A stretch of 64,000 nt of DNA. Source: Candidatus Cloacimonadales bacterium. GTDB lineage: Bacteria; Cloacimonadota; Cloacimonadia; Cloacimonadales; JAFGVF01. The notes beneath the pieces are model-generated. The model did no database searches, was not told where the DNA came from, and saw only the letters and a list, made by a program, of their open reading frames with translations. A program made the translations under genes and the position numbers. Where the stretch lies: assembly GCA_963677495.2 (NCBI GenBank), contig CAXXOU010000004.1, positions 448,001-512,000 of the forward strand. Direction: 5' to 3'. Of the stretch, positions 2,955 through 50,650 are shown in pieces (positions within the stretch are counted from its first letter, which is position 1; every line of letters starts with the position of its first letter).

Positions 2955-3253
2955 TTTTAAACTCCTTCCAAATAACACTCAATATTTATAATGACTTAAG
3001 AAAACAAGTTAAGTTTTTGGTCAATATAAATGAATGGATTTATGTATACAGTTTGTTAGCTAACTTTTACATTAGAGTCACTTTACTAACAAGTCTCTTC
3101 TAGTCGTAAAAGAAATGAATTATCCAAGAGCGTAATATACTTTCCTTGAATGCCTGTTAACAACAATGTAAAGAAGCCTAATTCTAGCTTAACAGATTAC
3201 ATTTGTGTTGACAATCTATGCACCGTACTTTCTTTTCTAACCGAGAGGTTATT

Positions 3254-5074
3254 ATGAAAAAATCGATACTAATAGTTTTAGCTATATTGTTAACATTGAG
3301 TCTGAGAGCAGAAGAGGGAGTGAAGATGGATAGATTAGATTGGTTTAAGGATGCAAAGCTTGGTATTTTCATCCATTGGGGTATATATTCAGTGAACGGG
3401 ATTGATGAATCCTGGTCTTTTTATAACAACTATATCCCATATGAAGACTACATGAAGCAAGCATCAAGATTCACAGCAAAGAAATATAAACCCAAAAGCT
3501 GGGCAAAGCTAATCAAATCTACAGGTGCAAAATATGCTGTACTAACTACCAAACATCATGATGGTATAGCATTATGGGACACCAAACTAAGTGAACTTAA
3601 TGTGCTTGAAAAGACTCCAGCAGGAAAGGATTTGGTAGAACCTTTCTGTAAAGCTTTACGAGATGAAGATATTAAAGTTGGACTATATTATTCACTTATA
3701 GATTGGTCAGATCATCGATACCCAAATTTCCTTATTAACAAGAAACGTTATGAGAAGGATGAACGTAAATGGAGTGAGTTTGTTGAGTTCTATCAAGGAC
3801 AGTTAGAAGAGTTATCTACAATGTATAACCCTGATCTTTACTGGTTTGATGGAGATTGGGAGTTTACAGCAGAAGAGTGGAAGGCAGAAGAACTTAAAGA
3901 GAAGCTTTTGACTTGGAATCCTAATGTTATTACCAACTCAAGACTACAGGGGTACGGTGATTATGAAACTCCGGAACAGGGAGTGCCAATCAATAAGCCT
4001 GATAGTGAAACTTGGGAACTATGTTTAACAATGAATGATTCCTGGGGTTATCAGCATAACGACAAAAACTACAAGTCACCTTATGAAATTATTCATACAT
4101 TTGTTGATTGTATCTCTATGGGAGGCAATCTACTTCTTGATATTGGACCTAAAGAGGATGGCTCAATACCGGATGAGCAAGTCGAGATTTTGGAAGAACT
4201 TGCACGCTGGAATAGAAAGCATTATGAAGCTGTTTTTGAAAGTGATGCCGGGATTGATAGAAAACACACTGATTATCCAACAACTCTTTCAAAGGATAAG
4301 AGATCATTGTATATTTTCTTACCACATACACCGACAATCTTTGTTCCTTTGAGAATTAGAGGATTGCAATCAGAAGTTGTATCATGCACTATTCTTGATA
4401 AAAAGAATACTCCTCTCAAATGGGAGAAACGTAACTCTAATCTGATAATAGAAGCTCCTAGTGCAGAACTTGATCCTATGATGAGCGTTATAAAAGTTAC
4501 ATTGAATACAGAAATAGAACTTACTGATGAGTTTGACTTGAATATAAACTCTATTATCTCAGAGGATTATAGGGCATTTAAAGGCTTTGGTTTAATTGCA
4601 CAGGACTATATTGAACTAGCAACAAAGGCAACTGTAAATGATACTATGCTTAGTTCAATATCAGAACAGATATTTAAAGATTACAGCATCGATAGCCCCA
4701 ATCCATTCTACTTCACTACCCTTGATCTAAAGAAGTGGATAAACAAAAATCAAGAAGCCTTTTTCAATGCCCAACCCGGACTCCCCGAAGGTTACTTCCA
4801 AGGTCGTACTTCTTTATCTGAAAATAGAGATGTACTGTTCCTTTATGTACCGGGTAAAGCAAATGGCTCAATTGCAATCAAGGGATTGAAGAACAAAATC
4901 AACCGTATCCGTGTTGTTGGCTCAGGTGTAAAACTTTCATGGGATATTCACAACAAACTCTATTGGAATGAGAAGCCCGGAATTGTCTATATCGATCTGC
5001 CGAAATCAGAATGCGATGACTTCATGACCATTATCGCTGTTCAACTGAATGGTGAGATTGAATTGGAGGAGTAG
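3254..5074 (+). CDS. Alpha-L-fucosidase (GH29), secreted
   Basis: WF.DAKLGIFIHWG, TTKHHDG, WFDG nucleophile, GGNLLLDIGP; signal peptide from ATG 3254 (GAGG SD). Confidence 0.92.
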   Translation: MKKSILIVLAILLTLSLRAEEGVKMDRLDWFKDAKLGIFIHWGIYSVNGIDESWSFYNNYIPYEDYMKQASRFTAKKYKPKSWAKLIKSTGAKYAVLTTKHHDGIALWDTKLSELNVLEKTPAGKDLVEPFCKALRDEDIKVGLYYSLIDWSDHRYPNFLINKKRYEKDERKWSEFVEFYQGQLEELSTMYNPDLYWFDGDWEFTAEEWKAEELKEKLLTWNPNVITNSRLQGYGDYETPEQGVPINKPDSETWELCLTMNDSWGYQHNDKNYKSPYEIIHTFVDCISMGGNLLLDIGPKEDGSIPDEQVEILEELARWNRKHYEAVFESDAGIDRKHTDYPTTLSKDKRSLYIFLPHTPTIFVPLRIRGLQSEVVSCTILDKKNTPLKWEKRNSNLIIEAPSAELDPMMSVIKVTLNTEIELTDEFDLNINSIISEDYRAFKGFGLIAQDYIELATKATVNDTMLSSISEQIFKDYSIDSPNPFYFTTLDLKKWINKNQEAFFNAQPGLPEGYFQGRTSLSENRDVLFLYVPGKANGSIAIKGLKNKINRIRVVGSGVKLSWDIHNKLYWNEKPGIVYIDLPKSECDDFMTIIAVQLNGEIELEE

Positions 5075-5130
5075 TTCAACATTGTATGTCGAAAGCTTAT
5101 AGTTAATAGCCTATAGCCTATAGTAAATTA

Positions 5131-5316
5131 TACGACTTTAGTCGTCTTTACCGGGTACGCGGACATCCCTGTCCGCATCTGTTTTGTACTTCGACGTTGC
5201 ACGTCGAACTTAGAACGACGTATTATGCCGTTGTGTAATGTAGTAAACCGAACACCCCTTTTCGGGCTTTGGTAGTGCAAGTGTCCCCACTTGCACATAG
5301 CTCGTTGAGAGCTATA
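5131..5316. repeat. Cluster of short REP-like hairpins
   Basis: ACGACTTTAGTCGT; GTAC-GCGGACATCCCTGTCCGC; GTAC-TTCGACGTTGCACGTCGAA; GTAG-TGCAAGTGTCCCCACTTGCAC; ATAGCTCGTTGAGAGCTAT. Confidence 0.7.
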
Positions 5317-5339
5317 ACAGGGAAGCCAATCGTGTTCTG

Positions 5340-5460
5340 AAACTAGTATTGACAGCATAATCATAAACATAGTTTTACGTTTAAACGTATGGTCGCTAAG
5401 TTTTGGTCAGTGGAATCTGCCGACGTTGTCGGCACAGCAACTCAGGAGAGTCGCAGTACA
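5340..5460 (+). repeat. ~121-bp direct repeat, copy 1
   Basis: Matches 6172-6293; the last 44 bp are identical; contains TTGACA and the hairpin TGCCGACGTTGTCGGCA. Confidence 0.92.
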
Positions 5461-5464
5461 CTTC

Positions 5465-5917
5465 TCATACAATCCAACTATCCAAACTCTGATATCTCGT
5501 CACCTTTGGTAGAAGCTCATTCTCAACAGCTTCACTGATTGTTCTGATTGGTAGGGCATTATCAATAATGTAAGTAATATCAATTGTCTTCAAATCAATC
5601 TCCGGATGTAGCTTCTTGAGTTTATACATCATAATCGTAAAGACATTGTAGGCATTATAGATACATTTTTCACCTACTGTCTCCAAGTTTCTGTTTGTTG
5701 CATAGTCCATTAGGTCGATTCTGTAAGCATCAGATGTGCTGTGATATAACCGACTAAGGTTTTGTGACTGGTTCTTAAGTGTGATGTTAGTATGGTCAAT
5801 CTTTCTTCTCTTGTATGCTCTTGCAATCAATACATCGCTTTTACGGTACCTATAAAACACGAGCTTGCCGATTTTGCCTACCAGTGCTCTGGTTATTGTG
5901 TCTAATTGAACTCTCAT
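5465..5917 (-). CDS. Hypothetical basic protein (150 aa), member of an unannotated paralog family
   Basis: AAGGAG SD; N-terminal GKIGKLVFY..R; C-terminal PEIDLKT...AVENELLP also found at 21605-21772. Confidence 0.85.
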   Translation of the reverse strand: MRVQLDTITRALVGKIGKLVFYRYRKSDVLIARAYKRRKIDHTNITLKNQSQNLSRLYHSTSDAYRIDLMDYATNRNLETVGEKCIYNAYNVFTIMMYKLKKLHPEIDLKTIDITYIIDNALPIRTISEAVENELLPKVTRYQSLDSWIV

Positions 5918-6171
5918 TTCTCTCTCCTTTGTTTAAAATCAACATTTAGCATTTAGCATTTCTAACCCCTCTATTAACATAACTATCAGAAAACACTAAC
6001 TTGTATCAGAATTATTGGCATTTTTTAATTCCTCTATAATTATATAGGAATAATTTCTTGCTTTGAGGAATAAAGATATCATATTTTTTTAGGTCCTCTA
6101 TAACTATACTGGGGGAAAAAGGAGTTGATTTAGTGAAAAGAGAGTAGTTTTTTTACTTGAATGGTGCTCAA

Positions 6172-6293
6172 AAACTAGTATTGACATGTATAATCATAAA
6201 CATAGTTCTATGTTTAAACTTATGGTTTCTAAGTCTCGGTCAGTGGAAGCTGCCGACGTTGTCGGCACAGCAACTCAGGAGAGTCGCAGTACA
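6172..6293 (+). repeat. ~122-bp direct repeat, copy 2
   Basis: Matches 5340-5460. Confidence 0.92.
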
Positions 6294-6395
6294 TGTACTC
6301 GACCACAATTAATCAGTCTTTACATGTGCGATCAAGGATAATCGCTTAATATATAAACCAGCATTTCAAGCACTTCGGTGCTGGGTAAATCTGAG

Positions 6396-6494
6396 ATATT
6401 TAACCGCGGATGAACCACAGGTAAACCACGCCCAAACGGCGGGAGGCGTGGTTAACCCGTGGTTTACCCCTGGTCAACCCGTTGTCAACTGCCA
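6396..6494. repeat. 11-bp-period hairpin, family A copy 1 (unit ~AACCACGGGTT)
   Basis: Units at 6402/6413/6424, inverted units at 6447/6458/6469/6480; near reverse complement of 50396-50497. Confidence 0.9.
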
Positions 6495-6553
6495 GACTTG
6501 TGACATGGATAACACAGTCGATTCAGATGATTGTTGAAATCAGTTTTCATAAA

Positions 6554-8509
6554 CTAATTATTACCTAAAGGGAATGTTATCTCGAACCTTGTTCCTTTTC
6601 CAACTTCGCTAAAACATTGAATGGAACCGGACTGTTTGTTAACAAGTTCTTTCACAAGTACCATGCCCATACCTACACCCTTTTCATTAGCTGTACCTAT
6701 AATAGAATCTGAAACCAGCTCAAAGATTGTGTCAGCTTTTTCTTGTGGCATACCAACACCTGAATCTTTAATTGTTAAAATCAAGCTCTGAACATCCCTT
6801 TCTTCAGAAACTACAATTTTACCACTTTCTGTTGAGTATTTAATGGCATTTTGAACAATGTTCCTGAAAATAGTTTTTAATGAGATATACTCAGCAGTGA
6901 TTGTTGAATTGCTTGCAATACTGTTCTCAATAAAAACACCTTTGTCTTTAAGACGTTTCTTAAAGAAGTTTATAATCTCTTCAAAACAATCAAAAAGATA
7001 TATCTCCTCTTTTGATCTTTCAAGTCCGGATATTACTTCTTTACTCCAGCCAACAAGATCTTCTGTCAATTTGTATGTTTTGCTAACAGTCTCTTTTATG
7101 TTAATCAAAACCACATCATCATGATAGAAGTCGTCAGGTTTATCAATGAGTTGTAACATCTGGTCAACAATACCCATCGGTCCCCTTATATCATGAGTTA
7201 TAATAGAGATCAATTTATCACGTATGCTCTTCTCCTCTTTAAGGTTAGCTAGATTATTTATGAGAAGTGCTTTATCATGCGCAAGTTCGTAATTTAAGTA
7301 TTTAAGCTCATTCAGTTTCTCTTGATAAGCAGAAAGAGCAATAGAATCGTTACTTTCATTTAATGTGGAGTTTATATCTTCTATGGAAGTAGCGTATGCA
7401 TCAGTTCTACTTTTCTTTAAAAACTCATTGTAGTTGGTAGACCATTCTAATGCTTGTTCAAACTCTCCAATAGCTTTGTAATAGCTAATTCTTAAATCAG
7501 GTAAATTCATATGAAACTTGTCATCTGTAAGAGTATCTGATAAGTCTAGGTATTTCTTCACTGTATCATAATCTTCTAGCTTCATAGAACAGCTCATAAT
7601 CATCTGATAGAAGTTTAAGCGTTCATGGTTACTTTCTTTAGACTCTACCAGCTCAAGTACACTCATTAACAGATCAAGTGCTTCTTGATACTTCTCTAAA
7701 GTATAAAGGTAGGAGCTCTTTATTCTCGTGTTAGCAAAACTATAATGTAGGTAGTAACTGTTGATACTAGTTTCTGAAAGCTTAAAATTGGGTTGAAGTT
7801 CATTAAATTGCTTATCAAATCTATCAAGATACTCTTTAGCATTTTCTGGTTCATTCATTAGAATATGACATGAAGCAAGATTATTAAAAATAAGAGGTAA
7901 TAATTTACTTTTATCCGGCTCAGAGATAGTATCAATTGCCATAAGAAAATAGTGAATAGCTTGATCGAAATTGCTTAGTGCCATATAGGTTACACCAATA
8001 TTGGTCAGAATTCTATAGAAGAGAGGGGACTCATCCTGATTATACTTGTTTGAAAATGTGTATGCTTGCATTAAATGCCATAAAGCTTTTCGATATTCAG
8101 CACGGTTCTTGTAGATAACAGCAATGTTTGAGTGAACATCCATTAGCAACTCATTTGTATCCTCACTAGTACAGTTACGGAGAGCTTCCTGATAATAATG
8201 GAGTGATTCATCAAGCTTACTGAGCTGAGATTTAATAATACCAAGGTTAGAGAAGAATCTGACCTTCTGCTCCTGTTCACCAAAATCTCTAACTATATCA
8301 ATACTTTTCTCAGCAGTAATCTCCAGTGATTTAAAGTCATATGTAAACACGAAATCGGAATGCAACTGTAATAGGATTAAATCAATACCCTCTTTACTTG
8401 GTAAAGTATACTTGGACTTTAATTCTAACATAAGATTTTTGAAGGCAGACTTATCCTGTGTTGCTATGTATTGTTTTAGTTCTTTCTTTTCCTGTTTGAA
8501 GCTCATCAC
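6554..8509 (-). CDS. TPR-repeat sensor histidine kinase (orphan, no transmembrane segment seen)
   Basis: N-terminal TPR-like repeats; H-box THDIRGP, NAIKYS, DSGVGM, GVGMGM and GKGTRF. Confidence 0.9.
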   Translation of the reverse strand: MMSFKQEKKELKQYIATQDKSAFKNLMLELKSKYTLPSKEGIDLILLQLHSDFVFTYDFKSLEITAEKSIDIVRDFGEQEQKVRFFSNLGIIKSQLSKLDESLHYYQEALRNCTSEDTNELLMDVHSNIAVIYKNRAEYRKALWHLMQAYTFSNKYNQDESPLFYRILTNIGVTYMALSNFDQAIHYFLMAIDTISEPDKSKLLPLIFNNLASCHILMNEPENAKEYLDRFDKQFNELQPNFKLSETSINSYYLHYSFANTRIKSSYLYTLEKYQEALDLLMSVLELVESKESNHERLNFYQMIMSCSMKLEDYDTVKKYLDLSDTLTDDKFHMNLPDLRISYYKAIGEFEQALEWSTNYNEFLKKSRTDAYATSIEDINSTLNESNDSIALSAYQEKLNELKYLNYELAHDKALLINNLANLKEEKSIRDKLISIITHDIRGPMGIVDQMLQLIDKPDDFYHDDVVLINIKETVSKTYKLTEDLVGWSKEVISGLERSKEEIYLFDCFEEIINFFKKRLKDKGVFIENSIASNSTITAEYISLKTIFRNIVQNAIKYSTESGKIVVSEERDVQSLILTIKDSGVGMPQEKADTIFELVSDSIIGTANEKGVGMGMVLVKELVNKQSGSIQCFSEVGKGTRFEITFPLGNN

Positions 8510-8733
8510 TCCTCCCGAAACAAACTATAACATTAACGGCGTTTGTGTCAATGTTTGAAAGTGATCTCCATTCATTTTGCTGAGTGCTAAGATCCAATAA
8601 TTACTACAAAATGTACCGGTAGTAATTGTTAAGAGAAGGTGTTTAGAAACCCTTACAGTTTCTTGAATTATAAAACAATTGACATTAGGGACAATACAAA
8701 AAGTTTGAAATCATTAATAATCCGGGAGAAGAG

Positions 8734-12073: not shown

Positions 12074-14053
12074 ATGAAAAGTAACGTTAATCCTCAGGAG
12101 AACTACAAAAGAACCCGTGACCTTTGTGGTTGGGTACCTCGTAGTGAAGCAACTCGTAAAACTTATGAAGATATAGGCTTCATGAGTGGTTTAGAAGTTC
12201 ATCAACAACTCAATTCTAAGAAGAAGCTATTCTGTCGATGCCCGGTTGGAATATATCAGGATGCCGAAGATTTCGATACAGAAATTGTCAGGCATATGCG
12301 CCCAACTCTTAGTGAACTTGGTGAGTACGATGGTACAGCTTTAATGGAGTTCAAGACAAAGAAAGAGATTGTCTACAGAATTAAGAATGTCACAACATGT
12401 ACTTATGAACTTGATGATACTCCACCCTTCCCTGTTAACAGAGAAGCATTAGCAATTGCAACAGAAATCTCTCTTCTTCTTAAACAGAATCTTGTTGGAG
12501 AATTTCATATAATAAGAAAGCAATACCTTGATGGTAGTATTCCAACCGGATTCCAGAGAACCGGTATTATCGGTATCGAAGGTGAGATTTATCCGAAAGG
12601 TCGACGTGTTGGCATTATTCAGCTTAGTATTGAGGAAGACTCATGCCGTGAAGTTTCTGATATTGGGCATAGAAGAATTTATAGAACAGACAGACTCGGT
12701 GTTCCACTAATTGAAGTAGTTACTTATCCTGATATGAAAGAACCCGATGAGGTGCGTGATGCAGCAGAATACATCAGATACCTAACCAGAAGTACCGGCA
12801 AAGTAAGAGTCGGTATTGGTGCCGGACGTGAAGATGTAAACGTTAGTGCTACGGGTGGTACAAGAATAGAGATAAAGGGTGTTGCCCATATTAGCTGGAT
12901 TCCGGAGCTTACACATAATGAAGCTTTCCGCCAAAGAAGTCTTGTGCTACTGAGTGAAGAGATTAAGAAACGCAAAATAGATTTTGAGAAATGGGATATT
13001 ACTTCATCGGTTCTTCCTGCTGAACATGTAGCCGGAATGGTTCCAGAAGAGTTTGATTTAGAAGGGAAGAAAGTAGTTTCTGTTAATCTTCCTGACTTTA
13101 AAGGTTTACTAAGCTGGTTCACACAACCTGGTCAGACTTTTGGTAGTGAGATTAGTCAGAGACTGAGAGTGGTTGCCTGTCTTAATCAACCAAACATGAC
13201 TCATTCAGAAGCTCTCAATCCAATATTTGATGAGCAAGGTTTTGCTCATATTGCAAATGCACTCAAAGCAGGAGAAAATGATGCACAAATAGTATTCTTT
13301 GCCCCTGATGAGGATATAGAGACCGCTCTTGAAACAATCAAAGAACGTTGTCAGATGGCATGTGATGGTGTGCCTAAAGAGACTAGAAAGTCATTTGAAG
13401 ATGGAACAACAATCTTTGAACGTGTGCTTCCGGGTGCAGATAGAATGTACCCTGATACTGATTCAGCTCCAATACCAATCGAAGAAAGTTTTATCGAAGG
13501 AATCAGAGCCCAGATGCCTAAGTTCTTACAAGAACAGATTGCTCTTTTACATGAATGGGAAGCTCCTGAAGATACTCATGATTATCTCCTAAGAAATAAC
13601 CTTATTAGTTGGGTAGAGCTTATTGCGAATAGGTATGAGATTGACCCAAGTAAAGTTGTAACTTTAATCGCTCATAGATTGAAAGAGCTTGAAAGAAAGC
13701 ATGATGGAATCATCAACTTAGAAAACATACTTGCCATGTTCGAGTTCCTTAAAGAACACAGAATGAATTATGAGTATGCTTATGAGATGCTTAAATATGT
13801 CTATCTGAATCCTCATGATGACATGCAGGATTGCGCTGTGAAAGCGGGACTTACAATCGTGCATCCTGATTCAATCGATGAACTTATTAAAGAGGAGATT
13901 GCTAAACTTAATGAGCAGCAAGCAGCTCTTGACGTTGCACCTAAAACTAAGTACATTATGGGTAGACTTAGATTCAGAGTGATTGGTAACCTTCCAATGG
14001 AAGCTGTTGCTGAATCTATCACAGCAATCCTTACAGGTAGAGAGGAGGAATAA
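12074..14053 (+). CDS. gatE: Glu-tRNA(Gln) amidotransferase subunit E (archaeal type)
   Basis: GLEVHQQL..KKLFCRCP, DGS.PTGFQRT, DRLG.PLIE and PGADRMYPDTD; has the insertion domain that is absent from GatB. Confidence 0.93.
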   Translation: MKSNVNPQENYKRTRDLCGWVPRSEATRKTYEDIGFMSGLEVHQQLNSKKKLFCRCPVGIYQDAEDFDTEIVRHMRPTLSELGEYDGTALMEFKTKKEIVYRIKNVTTCTYELDDTPPFPVNREALAIATEISLLLKQNLVGEFHIIRKQYLDGSIPTGFQRTGIIGIEGEIYPKGRRVGIIQLSIEEDSCREVSDIGHRRIYRTDRLGVPLIEVVTYPDMKEPDEVRDAAEYIRYLTRSTGKVRVGIGAGREDVNVSATGGTRIEIKGVAHISWIPELTHNEAFRQRSLVLLSEEIKKRKIDFEKWDITSSVLPAEHVAGMVPEEFDLEGKKVVSVNLPDFKGLLSWFTQPGQTFGSEISQRLRVVACLNQPNMTHSEALNPIFDEQGFAHIANALKAGENDAQIVFFAPDEDIETALETIKERCQMACDGVPKETRKSFEDGTTIFERVLPGADRMYPDTDSAPIPIEESFIEGIRAQMPKFLQEQIALLHEWEAPEDTHDYLLRNNLISWVELIANRYEIDPSKVVTLIAHRLKELERKHDGIINLENILAMFEFLKEHRMNYEYAYEMLKYVYLNPHDDMQDCAVKAGLTIVHPDSIDELIKEEIAKLNEQQAALDVAPKTKYIMGRLRFRVIGNLPMEAVAESITAILTGREEE

Positions 14054-15435
14054 TGAGCGATAATACACAAGGATATAAAGGCCCTAGTAAAGCTATTCTT
14101 GAGAAGTTCAATGTTCGAGTTTGGGGGGATACTGAGATTCTCACCACTCGTGGTACTTTTAAAGGTATCATTCTTCCAAGAGCCGAGAACGATGATGACC
14201 AGCACATTGTACTTAAACTTATTACAGGTTACAATGTTGGTATCGACATAAAGACTATTACTGATATGAAAGAGATTGGTTATAAGAAAGCCAATTATAA
14301 GATCCCTGAAAAAGAGTTCCCATATACAGAAGGTATGCCAAACCTAAAGCTCTTTGGTACCGGGGGTACAATTGCATCACGTCTTGATTATAGAACCGGT
14401 GCTGTAATTCCGGCTTTCTCACCAGGTGAACTGTATGGTGCTGTACCTGAGCTTGCGGACGTATGTAATCTGAAGACTGAGAAGCTATTTGCAGTGTTCA
14501 GTGAGAACATGGGACCTCGGCAATACAAAGAACTAGCCATTGCTATTGGTAAAGAGATTGAGAATGGCATAGATGGTATCATGATCGGTCATGGTACCGA
14601 TACTCTTCACCACACAGCTGCTGCTTTAACTTTTATGGTACAGAACTCACCTGTACCTATCGTACTTGTTGGTTCTCAACGCTCTTCCGATAGACCTTCA
14701 TCTGATGCTGCTTTAAATCTTATTCATGCTGCAAAAGCTGCAGGTGAATCTGATATAGCTGAAGTAATGATCTGTATGTTTGGTCCTACCTCTGATGAGT
14801 ATGGTTTATTGCATAGAGGAACAAGAGTTCGTAAGATGCACTCATCTTTTAGATCAACATTCAGAACCATCGGTGACGTACCTCTAGCTACAATTAATAG
14901 AGATGAGATTAATACAATTAAGCAGAATTATAACAAGCGTAGAAGTGATAACAATGTTACTATCAAACCTTTCTTCGAAGAGAAAGTGGGAATGGTCTAT
15001 TATTACCCTAATATGCAACCGGATATGATCGATTCAATGGTTGATAATGGGTACAAAGGTATTGTTATTGCAGGCACCGGACTTGGTCATGTTAACAAAC
15101 CACTTTACCCTGCAATTGAACGTGCAGTGAAGAAAGGTGTTCATATCTTCATGACTGTTCAAACTCTTTGGGGATATGTTCATATGTTTGTTTATGACAC
15201 AGGTCGTGATCTTATGGCAAAAGGCATTATTCCTGCTGAGAATATGCTACCTGAAGTTGCATACATCAAACTCGGCTGGGCTATTGGTCAGACTGATGAT
15301 CCGGAAGAGGTTAGAAAGCTTATGCTTACACCTGTTAATGGTGAAATCACAGAAGGTGAACCATATAATAGTTACCTTATCTTCCAGGGTGGTACTCCTG
15401 AAGTCGAGAAGTTCATCAAGAATATTCATTTATAG
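14053..15435 (+). CDS. gatD: Glu-tRNA(Gln) amidotransferase subunit D (asparaginase fold)
   Basis: N-terminal KL..GYNVG domain; TGGTIASRLDYRTGAV, HGTDT, GSQRSSDRPSSD and RKMHS. Confidence 0.94.
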   Translation: MSDNTQGYKGPSKAILEKFNVRVWGDTEILTTRGTFKGIILPRAENDDDQHIVLKLITGYNVGIDIKTITDMKEIGYKKANYKIPEKEFPYTEGMPNLKLFGTGGTIASRLDYRTGAVIPAFSPGELYGAVPELADVCNLKTEKLFAVFSENMGPRQYKELAIAIGKEIENGIDGIMIGHGTDTLHHTAAALTFMVQNSPVPIVLVGSQRSSDRPSSDAALNLIHAAKAAGESDIAEVMICMFGPTSDEYGLLHRGTRVRKMHSSFRSTFRTIGDVPLATINRDEINTIKQNYNKRRSDNNVTIKPFFEEKVGMVYYYPNMQPDMIDSMVDNGYKGIVIAGTGLGHVNKPLYPAIERAVKKGVHIFMTVQTLWGYVHMFVYDTGRDLMAKGIIPAENMLPEVAYIKLGWAIGQTDDPEEVRKLMLTPVNGEITEGEPYNSYLIFQGGTPEVEKFIKNIHL

Positions 15436-21231: not shown

Positions 21232-21337
21232 GCGATATTGGTTTGATTATGAGTAAAATTATCCTCCTTGATTGATTTAAACGTATCGTAGAATCAATCT
21301 CCGAATCATGACGATGATTCCCAGCAATTAAAACTGT

Positions 21338-21457
21338 ACCTTTGGAATGGTCAAAGACCTTGCAAATGGTACACTTCGAAGGAAGGAACACCCCACCGTG
21401 CTGGGAGTATGTCCTGCGAATTCACCATTTGCAAGGTCTAAAGACCATTCCAAAGGT
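21338..21457. repeat. Inverted-repeat (REPIN/MITE-like) element, copy 1
   Basis: 33-34-bp arms ACCTTTGGAATGGTC...GACCTTGCAAATGGT in inverted orientation; second copy at 33098-33198. Confidence 0.88.
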
Positions 21458-21476
21458 GGGTAGATGTGTGGTAAAA

Positions 21477-21595
21477 GTCTGATATCCACACCTACTTTGC
21501 TCCCGCTCCTCCACCGGTCCTCTCGGGGATAGCCGGGAGAGGACCGGGAGTGATCCACGAGTGGGTCAGGAGAGGATACCTGATTTATATCAGAC
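21477..21595. repeat. 11-bp-period hairpin, family D (unit ~CCGGGAGAGGA)
   Basis: CTCCCGCTCCT/CCACCGGTCCT then CCGGGAGAGGA/CCGGGAGTGAT/CCACGAGTGGG/TCAGGAGAGGA; closing stem GTCTGATAT/ATATCAGAC. Confidence 0.8.
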
Positions 21596-21604
21596 ACTAC
21601 AAAG

Positions 21605-21772
21605 ATGATGAATAAATTACACAAAGCATATCCCGAAGTTGATCTTAAAACGCTGACACCTGAGGATGTTGTTGCACTTAACTTGCTTGTCATCACGATT
21701 AAAATGGCTGTTGAGAGTGAGTTATTGCCTGCAATAGAAGAAATAAGTGATTTGATACATCCAATCTTATAG
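21605..21772 (+). pseudogene. 5'-truncated paralog of the 5465-5917 protein (55 codons)
   Basis: MMNKLHKAYPEVDLKTLTPEDVVALNLLVITIKMAVESELLPAIEEISDLIHPIL aligns without gaps to MMYKLKKLHPEIDLKTIDITYIIDNALPIRTISEAVENELLPKVTRYQSLDSWIV; in-frame stop just upstream. Confidence 0.85.
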
Positions 21773-21949
21773 TTGTATGGATTTAACTGAAGGTGTCGGT
21801 TTGTCCTCGTTCGTGAGTATTATGTCTTCCTTCATAGTATTGTTACATAACCTTTAAAGCGCTCTATGGCCAGTCTCGAGTTACATTAACTAGAAATAAC
21901 CCAATAAAAAATAACGAAAACACTTGACAGAAAAGATGGTGGTGACTAA

Positions 21950-21967
21950 TCGTGATGTTGTTCACGA
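21950..21967 (+). promoter_or_regulatory. Putative Rex operator downstream of TTGACA (21924)
   Basis: TCGTGA-N6-TCACGA 18-bp palindrome resembling the Rex box TTGTGAA-N4-TTCACAA. Confidence 0.7.
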
Positions 21968-21980
21968 AAAGGAAATGATA

Positions 21981-22598
21981 ATGATAAAAGGTTTACAGAT
22001 TTCACTGATAAGAAGATTGCCTGTCTACGTTGATTGTTTGAGACGTTTGAAGAAAGGCGGAAATGAGTATATCTCAACCAGAGTTATCTCTGAGATGAGT
22101 TTGATACATGATACTCAAGTTCGTAAAGACTTCGCTTCAGCCGGTCTGAAAGGTGTGCCCAAAGTTGGTTACCATGTTCAGACAGTGTTAGACAGACTTA
22201 TCGATGTTCTTAACTGGAGAGATCTGAGTGTCGCCTTCCTCGTGGGTGCCGGTAATTTAGGAGCTGCTTTGCTTGGTTACGAAGGCTATCCTGAAACCGG
22301 AATGCAGATTATCGCAGCTTTCGATACTGATAATGATAAGGTAGGGAAGTTGATTAATAATGTGCAGATCTTTCCGATGGAGAAGTTTGTTAATTTAGCA
22401 AGCAGACTTCAAGTACAGATCGGGATTATAACAACACCACCTCATGTAGCTCAAAGAGTAGCTGATATGATGGTTGAGTGTGGATTCAAAGGAATATGGA
22501 ACTTCTCACCGAGAGTTCTGAATGTGCCTGACGATGTAGTAGTAGAGAATGCGGACCTATATTCCGGTTTAGTAGTCTTGAAATACAAGTTGAGCTAA
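21981..22598 (+). CDS. rex: Redox-sensing transcriptional repressor Rex
   Basis: RRLPVY, QVRKDF, G..KVGY.V, VGAGNLG.AL and IWNF; ATG at 21981 (alternative 21975) after AAGGA. Confidence 0.93.
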   Translation: MIKGLQISLIRRLPVYVDCLRRLKKGGNEYISTRVISEMSLIHDTQVRKDFASAGLKGVPKVGYHVQTVLDRLIDVLNWRDLSVAFLVGAGNLGAALLGYEGYPETGMQIIAAFDTDNDKVGKLINNVQIFPMEKFVNLASRLQVQIGIITTPPHVAQRVADMMVECGFKGIWNFSPRVLNVPDDVVVENADLYSGLVVLKYKLS

Positions 22599-40190: not shown

Positions 40191-40279
40191 ATAGCCTACA
40201 GCGAGTAGCCTACAGTCTATAGCCTACAGCTTATAGCCTATAGCCTATAGCCTACAGCTTATAGCCTATAGCCTATAGT
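40191..40279 (+). repeat. Heptamer tandem array (TAGCCTA/CAGCTTA)n
   Basis: About 12 units of 7 bp; inverted counterpart at 41148-41198. Confidence 0.92.
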
Positions 40280-40349
40280 TTTAAAGTCTGTAGGTTTCAC
40301 TAAATAATTATCTTATTGACATTTAGATGATTGCTATCAGTATATGATT

Positions 40350-40709
40350 ATGGAAAGGAAATGTATTATTAGTGATAAATCATTAGCGTTCGCTGTTAGG
40401 ATTGTAAATTTAAGTAAATACTTAAGAGATAAGTGTCATGAAAGAACCTTATCCGTTCAAATCCTTAGATCCGGTACATCAATTGGTGCGAATATTGAAG
40501 AAGCAAATGGAGCTCAATCAGATAAAGACTTTATCGCTAAAATGAGCATTGCCTATAAAGAATGCAGAGAAACAAAGTACTGGTTAACTTTACTCCACAA
40601 AACAGACTATCTTAATGAAGCTCAATATGAATCACTCATGAAAGACAATCTAGAACTACTCAAAATCATTATCGCAATTATCAAAACTAAAAAGCAAAAT
40701 ATGAAATAA
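40350..40709 (+). CDS. Four helix bundle protein (23S-IVS-protein/Avd-like family), copy 1
   Basis: DKS.AFAVRIV.L, QILRSGTSIGANIEEA, DFIAK.SIA.KE..ET.YWL; ATG at 40350 (alternative 40344). Confidence 0.92.
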   Translation: MERKCIISDKSLAFAVRIVNLSKYLRDKCHERTLSVQILRSGTSIGANIEEANGAQSDKDFIAKMSIAYKECRETKYWLTLLHKTDYLNEAQYESLMKDNLELLKIIIAIIKTKKQNMK

Positions 40710-40787
40710 GCAATAGCTTATAGTCTGTAGGTTTTTACTAAATAATTATCTTATTGACATTTAGATGATTGCTATCAGTATATAATT

Positions 40788-41144
40788 ATGGAAAGGGAAT
40801 GTATTATTAGTGATAAATCATTAGCGTTCGCTGTTAGGATTGTAAATCTAAGTAAATACTTAAGAGATAAGTGTCATGAAAGAACCTTATCTGTTCAAAT
40901 CCTTAGATCCGGTACATCGATTGGTGCGAACATTGAAGAAGCGAATGGGGCTCAATCAGATAAAGACTTTATCGCTAAAATGAGCATTGCCTATAAAGAA
41001 TGCAGAGAAACAAAGTATTGGTTAACTTTACTTCACAAAACAGATTATCTCAATGAAGCTCAATATGAATCACTCATGAAAGACAATTTAGAACTACTCA
41101 AAATCATTATCGCAATTATCAAAACTAAAAAGAAGAAGATGTAA
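40788..41144 (+). CDS. Four helix bundle protein, copy 2 (438-bp tandem duplication including the promoter)
   Basis: Near-identical to copy 1; differences are almost all synonymous. Confidence 0.92.
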   Translation: MERECIISDKSLAFAVRIVNLSKYLRDKCHERTLSVQILRSGTSIGANIEEANGAQSDKDFIAKMSIAYKECRETKYWLTLLHKTDYLNEAQYESLMKDNLELLKIIIAIIKTKKKKM

Positions 41145-41147
41145 AAA

Positions 41148-41198
41148 GCTATAGGCTGTAGGCTATTCGCTATAGGCTCTCTTTCAGCTATAGGCTTT
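41148..41198 (-). repeat. Inverted heptamer array (TAGGCTA)n
   Basis: GCTATAGGCTGTAGGCTATTCGCTATAGGCT is the near reverse complement of the start of the 40191 array. Confidence 0.85.
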
Positions 41199-43469: not shown

Positions 43470-43550
43470 ACTCTTGCATAACCCTTGCATAAATCCTGCA
43501 TAACTATGCAAGAGAGTTGTAAGATTCTTGTATGTTGGTTGAAGGGTTTG
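43470..43550. repeat. 11-bp-period hairpin, family G (unit ~CTTGCATAACC)
   Basis: CTTGCATAACC/CTTGCATAAAT/CCTGCATAACT then inverted ATGCAAGAGAG/TTGTAAGATTC/TTGTATGTTGG. Confidence 0.8.
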
Positions 43551-50395: not shown

Positions 50396-50497
50396 TGGCA
50401 TACTCGACCACGGGTTGACCACGGGTAAACCACGGGTTAACCACGGCTCCCGCCGTTTAGGCGTGGTTTACCCGTGGTTCATCCGAGGTAAAATATG
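50396..50497. repeat. 11-bp-period hairpin, family A copy 2
   Basis: Four ACCACGG units then inverted CGTGGTT units; near reverse complement of 6396-6494. Confidence 0.9.
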
Positions 50498-50650
50498 TCT
50501 TTGGTGGCAGACTGAGCATAAAGAATTAATGATTATCTTTGAACAATCTTTCCGGTAAAGATTTAGGAGAGATACAAATAATTATTGACTATGATATAAT
50601 ATTGTAGATAAGTTACATAAATAAATATTGAAGGAAGGAGATAAGGCACG

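Follow-up and report, generated by a model that had tools for sequence, protein, structure and literature searches.

The 55-codon frame at positions 21605 to 21772 (+ strand) of the window, the 64,000-nucleotide stretch of DNA analysed here, is a truncated paralog of the intact gene at 5465 to 5917, and it breaks off at the border of a dispersed hairpin repeat. It appears to be a non-functional 3' remnant, the decayed tail of a basic-type gene of p150, an uncharacterised family of about 150 residues in Cloacimonadales with no Pfam match and no recognisable fold. The genome to which the window belongs (Cloacimonadales, 3.41 Mb in 4 contigs, 37% G+C; here G000) carries about 290 arrays of 11-bp-phased words. 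These are enriched upstream of p150 genes and absent downstream of them in the lag test described below. We give an even chance to the reading that this link is positional and that the 55-codon fragment is dead. The original prediction had made a wider claim, that 11-bp hairpin arrays and p150 belong together, and for this the support is real but mixed.

The original observation held up in all its details, and the proposed relationship between the frame and the C-terminus of the 5465-5917 protein proved significant. BLASTP aligned the 55 amino acids without gaps to residues 96 to 145 (22/50 identities, E 5e-10), and a p150 profile made from the genome's own paralogs matched them at E 1.5e-19 over profile positions 85 to 138. 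The profile thus places the frame in p150, whereas it falls short of the full-length form of the family (about 150 aa, with N-terminal strands and helices). Its closest kin is the copy at C4:1070910-1071359, to which 45 of 55 amino acids are identical by tblastn (82%) and to which window positions 21602 to 21779 show 78.7% DNA identity by blastn; this paralog itself has a premature TAA twelve codons ahead of its end. Base-by-base alignment of the two demonstrated that gene similarity begins at about 21601 and extends slightly beyond the stop codon. Leftward of that point the sequences are unrelated, being coding sequence in the paralog and the end of hairpin D in the window. Because the hairpin D repeat extends to 21596 and homology sets in at about 21601, the border between repeat and remnant is fixed to within about 5 nt, and the predicted truncation at the hairpin edge was borne out. 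The first 95 codons have left no trace in the 2.1 kb upstream of the frame, where the best tblastn match had an E value of 0.36 and the profile returned the known fragment only. No N-terminal p150 fragment was found by tblastn or profile search anywhere in G000.

Hairpin D is a copy of a dispersed repeat of about 136 nt, located by folding and blastn at 21461 to 21596. It consists of CGGGAG-type words, inverted and phased at 11 bp, with a closing stem of 21477-21485 and 21587-21595, and its predicted fold of −57.3 kcal/mol (z −3.8) was equalled by 1 of 200 shuffles. Seven other matches were found in the genome by blastn, and the two longest both stop at 21596. As an 11-bp array hairpin D is weaker than hairpin A, the repeat near the intact gene: it has no TRF call, and in the lag test it gave 22/33 matches over 21532-21577 and did not attain 23/33. 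Immediately to its left, at 21330 to 21460, lies an abundant inverted-repeat element with perfect arms of 16 and 15 nt and on the order of 100 genome matches by blastn. The genomic context on the other side of the fragment is a gene for a Rex-type redox repressor at 21924 to 22598 (+ strand).

Hairpin A occupies 6387 to 6500, which is 470 to 583 nt upstream of the intact p150 gene and 54 nt downstream of the stop codon of a histidine kinase gene. Its arms (6400-6432 and 6445-6477) begin 483 nt upstream of the start codon at 5917 on the coding strand, in agreement with the distance of about 480 bp given originally. TRF called a period of 11 at 6447-6489, and the fold has a z of −2.6. The element consists of 11-bp-phased GTGGTT.ACC words in two inverted arms and gave 44 other blastn HSPs at about 40 loci. 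A second copy in the window, at 50406-50499, is 91.5% identical, lies in the opposite orientation and has no family gene nearby. Hairpins A and D are both short, intergenic, hairpin-capable and dispersed in many copies, as are REP and REPIN sequences, and nearly all members of their dispersed families (about 40 and about 8 copies, respectively) are far from any p150 gene.

Other repeats crowd the intact gene. A unit of about 190 nt at 5272 to 5460 adjoins its stop codon, and a partial second copy at 6160-6293, upstream of the gene, is 89.6% identical over 134 nt. Elsewhere in the genome as many as about 8 copies of this unit follow one another in tandem (for example, at C2:182182-183780), often beside family genes. 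A 7-bp tandem array of CATTTAG (+ strand) lies at 5943 to 5961, 26 nt upstream of the p150 start codon, and TRF found a 7-mer array of ATAGCCT at 5106-5123. Further along the window, a 438-bp unit is present at 40281-41154 in two tandem copies with a 94% match and ATAGCCT-type 7-mer arrays on both sides, and a strong 7-bp tandem array also occupies 40191-40278. The array at 43473-43504 has the word CTTGCATAA; in G001, a sister species, CTTGCATAA is found upstream of the family gene L137. Rfam gave no match at gathering score over the whole window.

The intact window member (5465 to 5917, − strand) is a 150-aa protein of the basic type (pI 9.56), and its gene has an AGGAG ribosome-binding site ahead of it. 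An iterated profile search of all six-frame ORFs in G000 recovered 22 full-length p150 members and 2 fragments. Members have 139 to 159 aa and are 23-59% identical to the window copy. Of 41 related genomes in the order, 28 have the family by whole-genome search, and multiple copies are frequent, for example 12 in G001, 12 in G013, 9 in G014, 19 in G021 and 23 in G027. When 1.84 billion cluster representatives were searched with the profile, 365 proteins passed E ≤ 0.001, 238 of them also E ≤ 1e-10; their length is almost always about 150 aa. The source name seen for a homolog, from a Candidatus Zophobacter MAG, was "hypothetical protein". A basic N-terminus that may bind the repeats had been pointed out in the protein. 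It does not characterise the family as a whole, since the G000 members fall into two types: 15 are mostly basic (pI 7.7-9.7, with one exception at 5.8) and seven are acidic (pI 4.7-5.8).

Comparison of p150 with Pfam, PHROGs, NCBIfam and PADLOC yielded nothing meaningful. The suggested resemblance to DUF6266-type N-termini found no backing in profile searches: PF19781 had no match to p150 at E ≤ 1, none among 35 homologs at E ≤ 0.1, and none over the whole genome at E ≤ 10. What likeness there is comes from a loose N-terminal G-K-x-G-x-L-V-Y stretch and from the ESM Atlas, where p150 met unnamed Cloacimonadota clusters and one weak neighbour cluster (0.83), 11% of whose members have DUF6266. 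AlphaFold2, run on a 24-sequence alignment, predicted three short N-terminal strands and then five helices (pLDDT 87, pTM 0.70). The fold searches proposed for this model brought no convincing neighbour; the best matches had E 0.59 (Foldseek, PDB) and E 0.43 (BFVD). A wide search with VIA-align reached a best Z of 4.0, and many ribbon-helix-helix chains scored Z 3-4 over the helices only, which was rated as chance level.

We inspected the surroundings of p150 genes in G000 and G001. DNA synteny between the two is broken at about 2970-8670, around the intact window copy, and resumes at 21904, just right of the fragment. Five divergent pairs in G000 (C4:777500-783100, C3:291400-297700, C1:774800-782400, C4:1465600-1474800 and C4:1498300-1504100; L182-L186), each made of one basic and one acidic p150 copy, flank slots of 4.5-8 kb. 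These slots contain LmuA and LmuB of Lamassu (E 1e-115 and 6e-147), type II methylases, an LmuB-like protein, a GHKL ATPase and a PIN protein. Such pairs around Lamassu, methylase and PIN slots recall defence hot spots flanked by conserved genes, and they differ in that the p150 flanking genes are multi-copy, diverged paralogs with arrays on the inner side. The two p150 copies of the window were considered as bookends of a single slot, and this was rejected. In the intervening 15.7 kb there are genes of housekeeping type (arginine deiminase, RNB nuclease, GatD/GatE-like genes and a phosphodiesterase), with no flanked defence genes. The two neighbouring genes at 12074-15435 have matches to the GatB/GatE catalytic domain and to asparaginase plus GatD_N, a GatD/GatE-type amidotransferase pair of a kind typical of archaea. 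The locus was found in 4 sequencing runs, all from one study, with no RNA run among those listed.

Arrays with an exact 11-bp period stand out across the whole genome. TRF reported 554 rows of period 11 in G000, compared with 171 of period 10 and 195 of period 12; under strict settings there were 219 loci of period 11 and 15 and 4 of periods 10 and 12. The lag test, with a threshold of at least 22/33 matches, detected lag-11 periodicity at 286 loci. Lags 10 and 13 gave 9 and 2 loci, and lags 9 and 12, which are codon-related, gave 40 and 38. Arrays were held by 41% of spacers of 400-700 bp, 54% of those of 700-1000 bp and 69% of those of 1000-1500 bp. Since their frequency does not differ between convergent, divergent and tandem spacers and they sit mid-spacer, no general tie to promoters is indicated. 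Around both window loci, sigma-70 promoters and terminators showed no excess over shuffles. In many array elements there is a palindrome made of two inverted TTATCCACA-like boxes, a motif known as the DnaA-box consensus, and a box of this kind lies within 80 nt of 83 of 409 TRF array loci. The elements at C1:358679-358864 and C1:491046-491086 have the same flanks and different 11-bp words (ATCAAG versus AGTAAG), with the copy at the hairpin tip changed to match. No literature was found on the repetitive intergenic DNA of Cloacimonadota, and among the matches listed for 11-bp tandem, hairpin or REP intergenic repeats none was on topic in its title or the start of its abstract.

Strong 7-bp arrays are far fewer, with 35 loci genome-wide. 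They are found within 400 bp upstream of 7 of the 22 full-length p150 copies, and just 3' of the stop codon in 4 of the 22, against 19 of 433 spacer-matched genes (4.4%). They are thus tied more specifically to the p150 family than are the 11-bp arrays. Period-7 arrays are also plentiful at homolog loci of other genomes.

We then considered what the 11-bp arrays mean for p150. The original prediction held that hairpin and gene form a module. As a functional unit, basic-type p150 would read the 11-bp-phased arrays, with the upstream copy as operator or home site and the dispersed arrays as targets or mobilised elements, by analogy with Rep and its iterons, ParR and parC, or RAYT and REP sequences. 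We regard this as possible, though doubtful, the more so as no DNA-binding family or fold was recognised in p150. The counts in G000 speak for it in part. Lag-11 loci are found in the 600 bp upstream of 10/15 basic-type copies and of 1/7 copies of the acidic type, so that arrays accompany the basic subfamily and not the acidic one; within 1000 bp the basic-type count rises to 13/15, and within 600 bp downstream it is 0/22 for all copies. The background for all 2402 crude genes is 12.1% upstream and 7.7% downstream. Genes with comparably long spacers, however, also have an array within 600 bp upstream in 43-44% of cases (110/258 for spacers of 400-700 bp and 77/175 for 700-1200 bp). The upstream excess that is left in G000 after spacer matching is modest and confined to the basic type (10/15 versus 43%).

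The spacer-matched rate is also an argument for pure coincidence, that is, for p150 genes merely having long upstream spacers, nearly half of which hold arrays. We judge this quite unlikely overall. For the whole family, 10 copies had an array among TRF loci, where about 8.7 were expected from summed size-class rates. In the window, both family members do lie downstream of a hairpin, as had been pointed out; because 43-44% of long-spacer genes have an array as well, two of two is close to chance. As an upstream element, moreover, the fragment's hairpin is unlike those of the intact genes, whose arrays lie 190-900 bp ahead of the start, as it stands where codons 1-95 should be.

Whether arrays lie upstream of homologs was determined in other genomes by applying the lag test to every listed full-length copy in G001, G013 and G014, along with 200-kb background samples. 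An array within 600 bp upstream was present at 5/11 copies in G001, 7/10 in G013 and 1/9 in G014, compared with 8/27, 5/32 and 2/16, respectively, for background genes with an upstream spacer of at least 400 bp. In the pooled data the upstream count was 13/30 versus 15/75 in the background (Fisher p 0.026), and the downstream count was 0/30; looser TRF calls gave 16/30 upstream and 2/30 downstream. With G000 included, the four genomes have 52 copies, of which 24 have an array within 600 bp upstream and none has one downstream. The lack of a clear excess in G001 and G014 would suit coincidence. The excess in G013 and the empty downstream side argue against it and for a module, the 52 copies having 25 downstream spacers of at least 400 bp. 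On the other side, when one locus was taken from each of 21 further genomes, an array was found upstream in only 2 of 21, and across genomes the preference for the basic type (22/50 versus 4/22 for the acidic) reached a p of 0.06; both results count against a module. Polar co-location is thus seen again in several genomes.

Array density appeared to follow the family between genomes. Lag-11 loci per 200 kb and p150 copies were 16.8 and 24 in G000, 9 and 12 in both G013 and G001, 7 and 9 in G014, 4 and 2 in G009, 2 and 1 in G004, and 0 and 0 in both G024 and G031; no locus was found in 108 kb of G034, which has no copy. This rise of density with copy number across the sampled genomes is suggestive and counts in favour of a module. 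It is opposed by G018, with 4 copies and no array in 150 kb, and by G027, with 23 copies and only 4 loci per 200 kb. The genomes are related to one another, and density and copy number may both just accompany repeat richness.

Comparison of individual gene units revealed where the arrays sit. Orthologs of G000 and G001 with protein identity of up to 94% have almost no alignable DNA on either flank, and in 4 of 6 ortholog pairs both flanks are unalignable. Those four pairs led us to reject conserved core DNA on the downstream side as the reason for the lack of arrays there. Downstream homology was absent in 13 of 16 compared pairs. Upstream, the array formed the distal end of the alignable DNA in four comparisons, three between orthologs and one between paralogs. 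Between L135 and C4_1498355 a block of 87% identity takes in the array, with nothing further out, and between L134 and C4_692506 the alignable block starts at the array. For L139 and C4_1447755 the array element is present in both, but inverted and at a different distance. In the paralogs C4_946147 and C4_1498355 the array is again the outermost alignable piece upstream. That arrays are the only conserved distal block between orthologs with otherwise unalignable flanks speaks against coincidence.

The strongest point for a functional tie is the switching of words inside a fixed frame, with the hairpin tip changing along. Upstream of C4_58745 in G000 and of L137 and L140 in G001, the arrays line up at about −300 to −255 and have different words within a shared frame of CTT.....AA.C, each word being uniform in its array and having an inverted copy at the hairpin tip. 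Four units of G013, which belongs to a different family of the order, likewise have one frame with the words CTAGATGA, TTAGGTGA and TGCGGTGA, so that words switch at the same upstream position of related genes in two families. Related copies of G000 and G001 also have the word AGTAAG upstream, though not in the same frame. Against a module, the word does not follow protein similarity: in G013 two proteins of 50% identity share word and frame, and a pair of 68% identity has different words. The G013 frame and word also occur at two sampled places without a listed p150 copy. Taken together with the discordance of protein and word, this indicates that the frame itself is a dispersed element, moving or undergoing conversion separately from the ORF. 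Nor is the geometry constant, since the flanking motifs stand in opposite order upstream of C4_777579 and C4_58745, and the distance to the gene varies too. The diversity of the words beside p150 genes (10 distinct of 12; P(≥10) = 0.36, with family labels assigned by hand and hairpin A set as its own family) does not exceed that of random draws from the array population, and "one paralog, one word" is thus not significant. Among array-word clusterings, single linkage chained everything and was dropped, and BLAST clustering chained several families. Overall, the module has in its favour the polar enrichment over genes at large and over the pooled background; the high rate in long spacers, the variable geometry, the dispersal of hairpins A and D far from p150 and the independence of word and protein leave that part of the prediction in doubt.

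Known systems resemble this arrangement in some respects. REP and REPIN sequences are short, dispersed intergenic hairpin repeats that form sequence families, and a gene for RAYT (TnpA-REP, of the Y1/HUH type) stands beside copies. The likeness lies in dispersed hairpin families, a small gene beside copies and a repeat density that varies with the gene across relatives. Unlike RAYT, p150 has no Y1_Tnp match in Pfam, its invariant and nearly invariant columns contain no histidine, and no HUH chain was among the Foldseek and VIA-align matches listed, a family missing from that listing not being thereby excluded. There are 22 diverged p150 copies, in contrast to one RAYT per repeat family. The p150-linked repeats are phased 11-bp words, whereas a REP is a single palindrome. 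RAYT genes are flanked by repeats on both sides; p150 has arrays on the upstream side only.

ParR of plasmid R1 recognises 11-bp repeats in parC, and the omega repressor acts on heptads. Tandem 11-bp and 7-bp words before a small gene, with a word that differs between related units, are common ground with these systems, and the omega repressor structure PDB 2bnw was among the fold-search matches listed. Set against this, p150 has no ribbon-helix-helix match in Pfam, arrays of the p150 type are dispersed hundreds of times across the genome, and the ribbon-helix-helix chains (Z 2.7-4.0) cover residues of about 45-107 of the p150 model, helices only, at chance level. Integron cassettes with attC differ as well, since the p150 hairpins lie 190-900 bp 5' of the ORF, with none 3' by the lag test.

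On the basis of about 290 arrays in the genome, their presence in nearly half of the long spacers and their exchange independent of the ORF, we read the link between arrays and p150 as positional. The fragment would have arisen in a rearrangement that removed the first 95 or so codons together with the leader and left the end of hairpin D as its junction. Hairpin D may have entered the gene by insertion, or it may already have been the gene's array prior to the deletion. Intact basic-type p150 genes usually have an array 190-900 bp upstream, these arrays being ordinary members of the roughly 290 dispersed elements and exchanged independently of the ORF. The genes would sit at the edge of repeat-rich, fast-changing DNA, as the synteny breaks and defence-gene slots suggest, and their leaders may be a favoured spot for array elements to land or persist. 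Co-location of this kind would need no binding by p150. The positional reading leaves the avoidance of the downstream side by arrays unexplained.

A point against the fragment being dead is its intact frame and a dN/dS of 0.048 with its nearest paralog, which could mean that it is still under selection. That the frame is a living mini-gene for the C-terminal helical part only is, despite these two features, very improbable, since dS is saturated at 1.63 and the low ratio mostly a record from before the truncation, no Shine-Dalgarno or AGGAG-like site precedes the ATG as it does in the intact gene, no counterpart exists at the syntenic place in G001, and a second, shorter 3' remnant shows that such pieces arise by decay. 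The dN/dS and dS values indicate instead that the two copies diverged long ago under selection and that the truncation is comparatively recent. The two leading ATGs of the frame are the conserved internal Met-Met of the family. The second remnant, at C4:1040938-1041066 (− strand), covers profile positions 110-139 and is separated by 363 bp from an acidic-type copy; it takes the divergent position that an intact basic-type gene has in other pairs.

A more far-reaching proposal can be drawn from these observations, which we put forward tentatively and think rather unlikely as a whole. Basic-type p150 would be a paralog-diversified family of new fold that reads 11-bp word arrays, with the array at the outer end of each unit and its word switchable in a fixed frame. 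The dispersed arrays would be targets or passengers, and genes and arrays would jointly mark the borders of swappable defence slots in Cloacimonadales. If true, this would be a repeat-plus-protein system akin in logic to REPIN/RAYT or iteron/Rep and unrelated to either.

The fragment itself is ordinary gene decay beside a small repeat. The p150 family, in contrast, is unstudied, comprises 365 clusters at 50% identity in public data, and is found at synteny breaks and around defence-gene slots. The roughly 290 dispersed repeats have as their sole common trait an exact 11-bp phasing, roughly one helical turn, and their polar co-location with p150 is so far covered by no explanation. If p150 does not read the arrays, what does read them and what the family does would both still have to be found. 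If it does, it would be a new case of a protein family diversifying together with dispersed DNA words, and would give a handle on the organisation of defence islands in an uncultured phylum.
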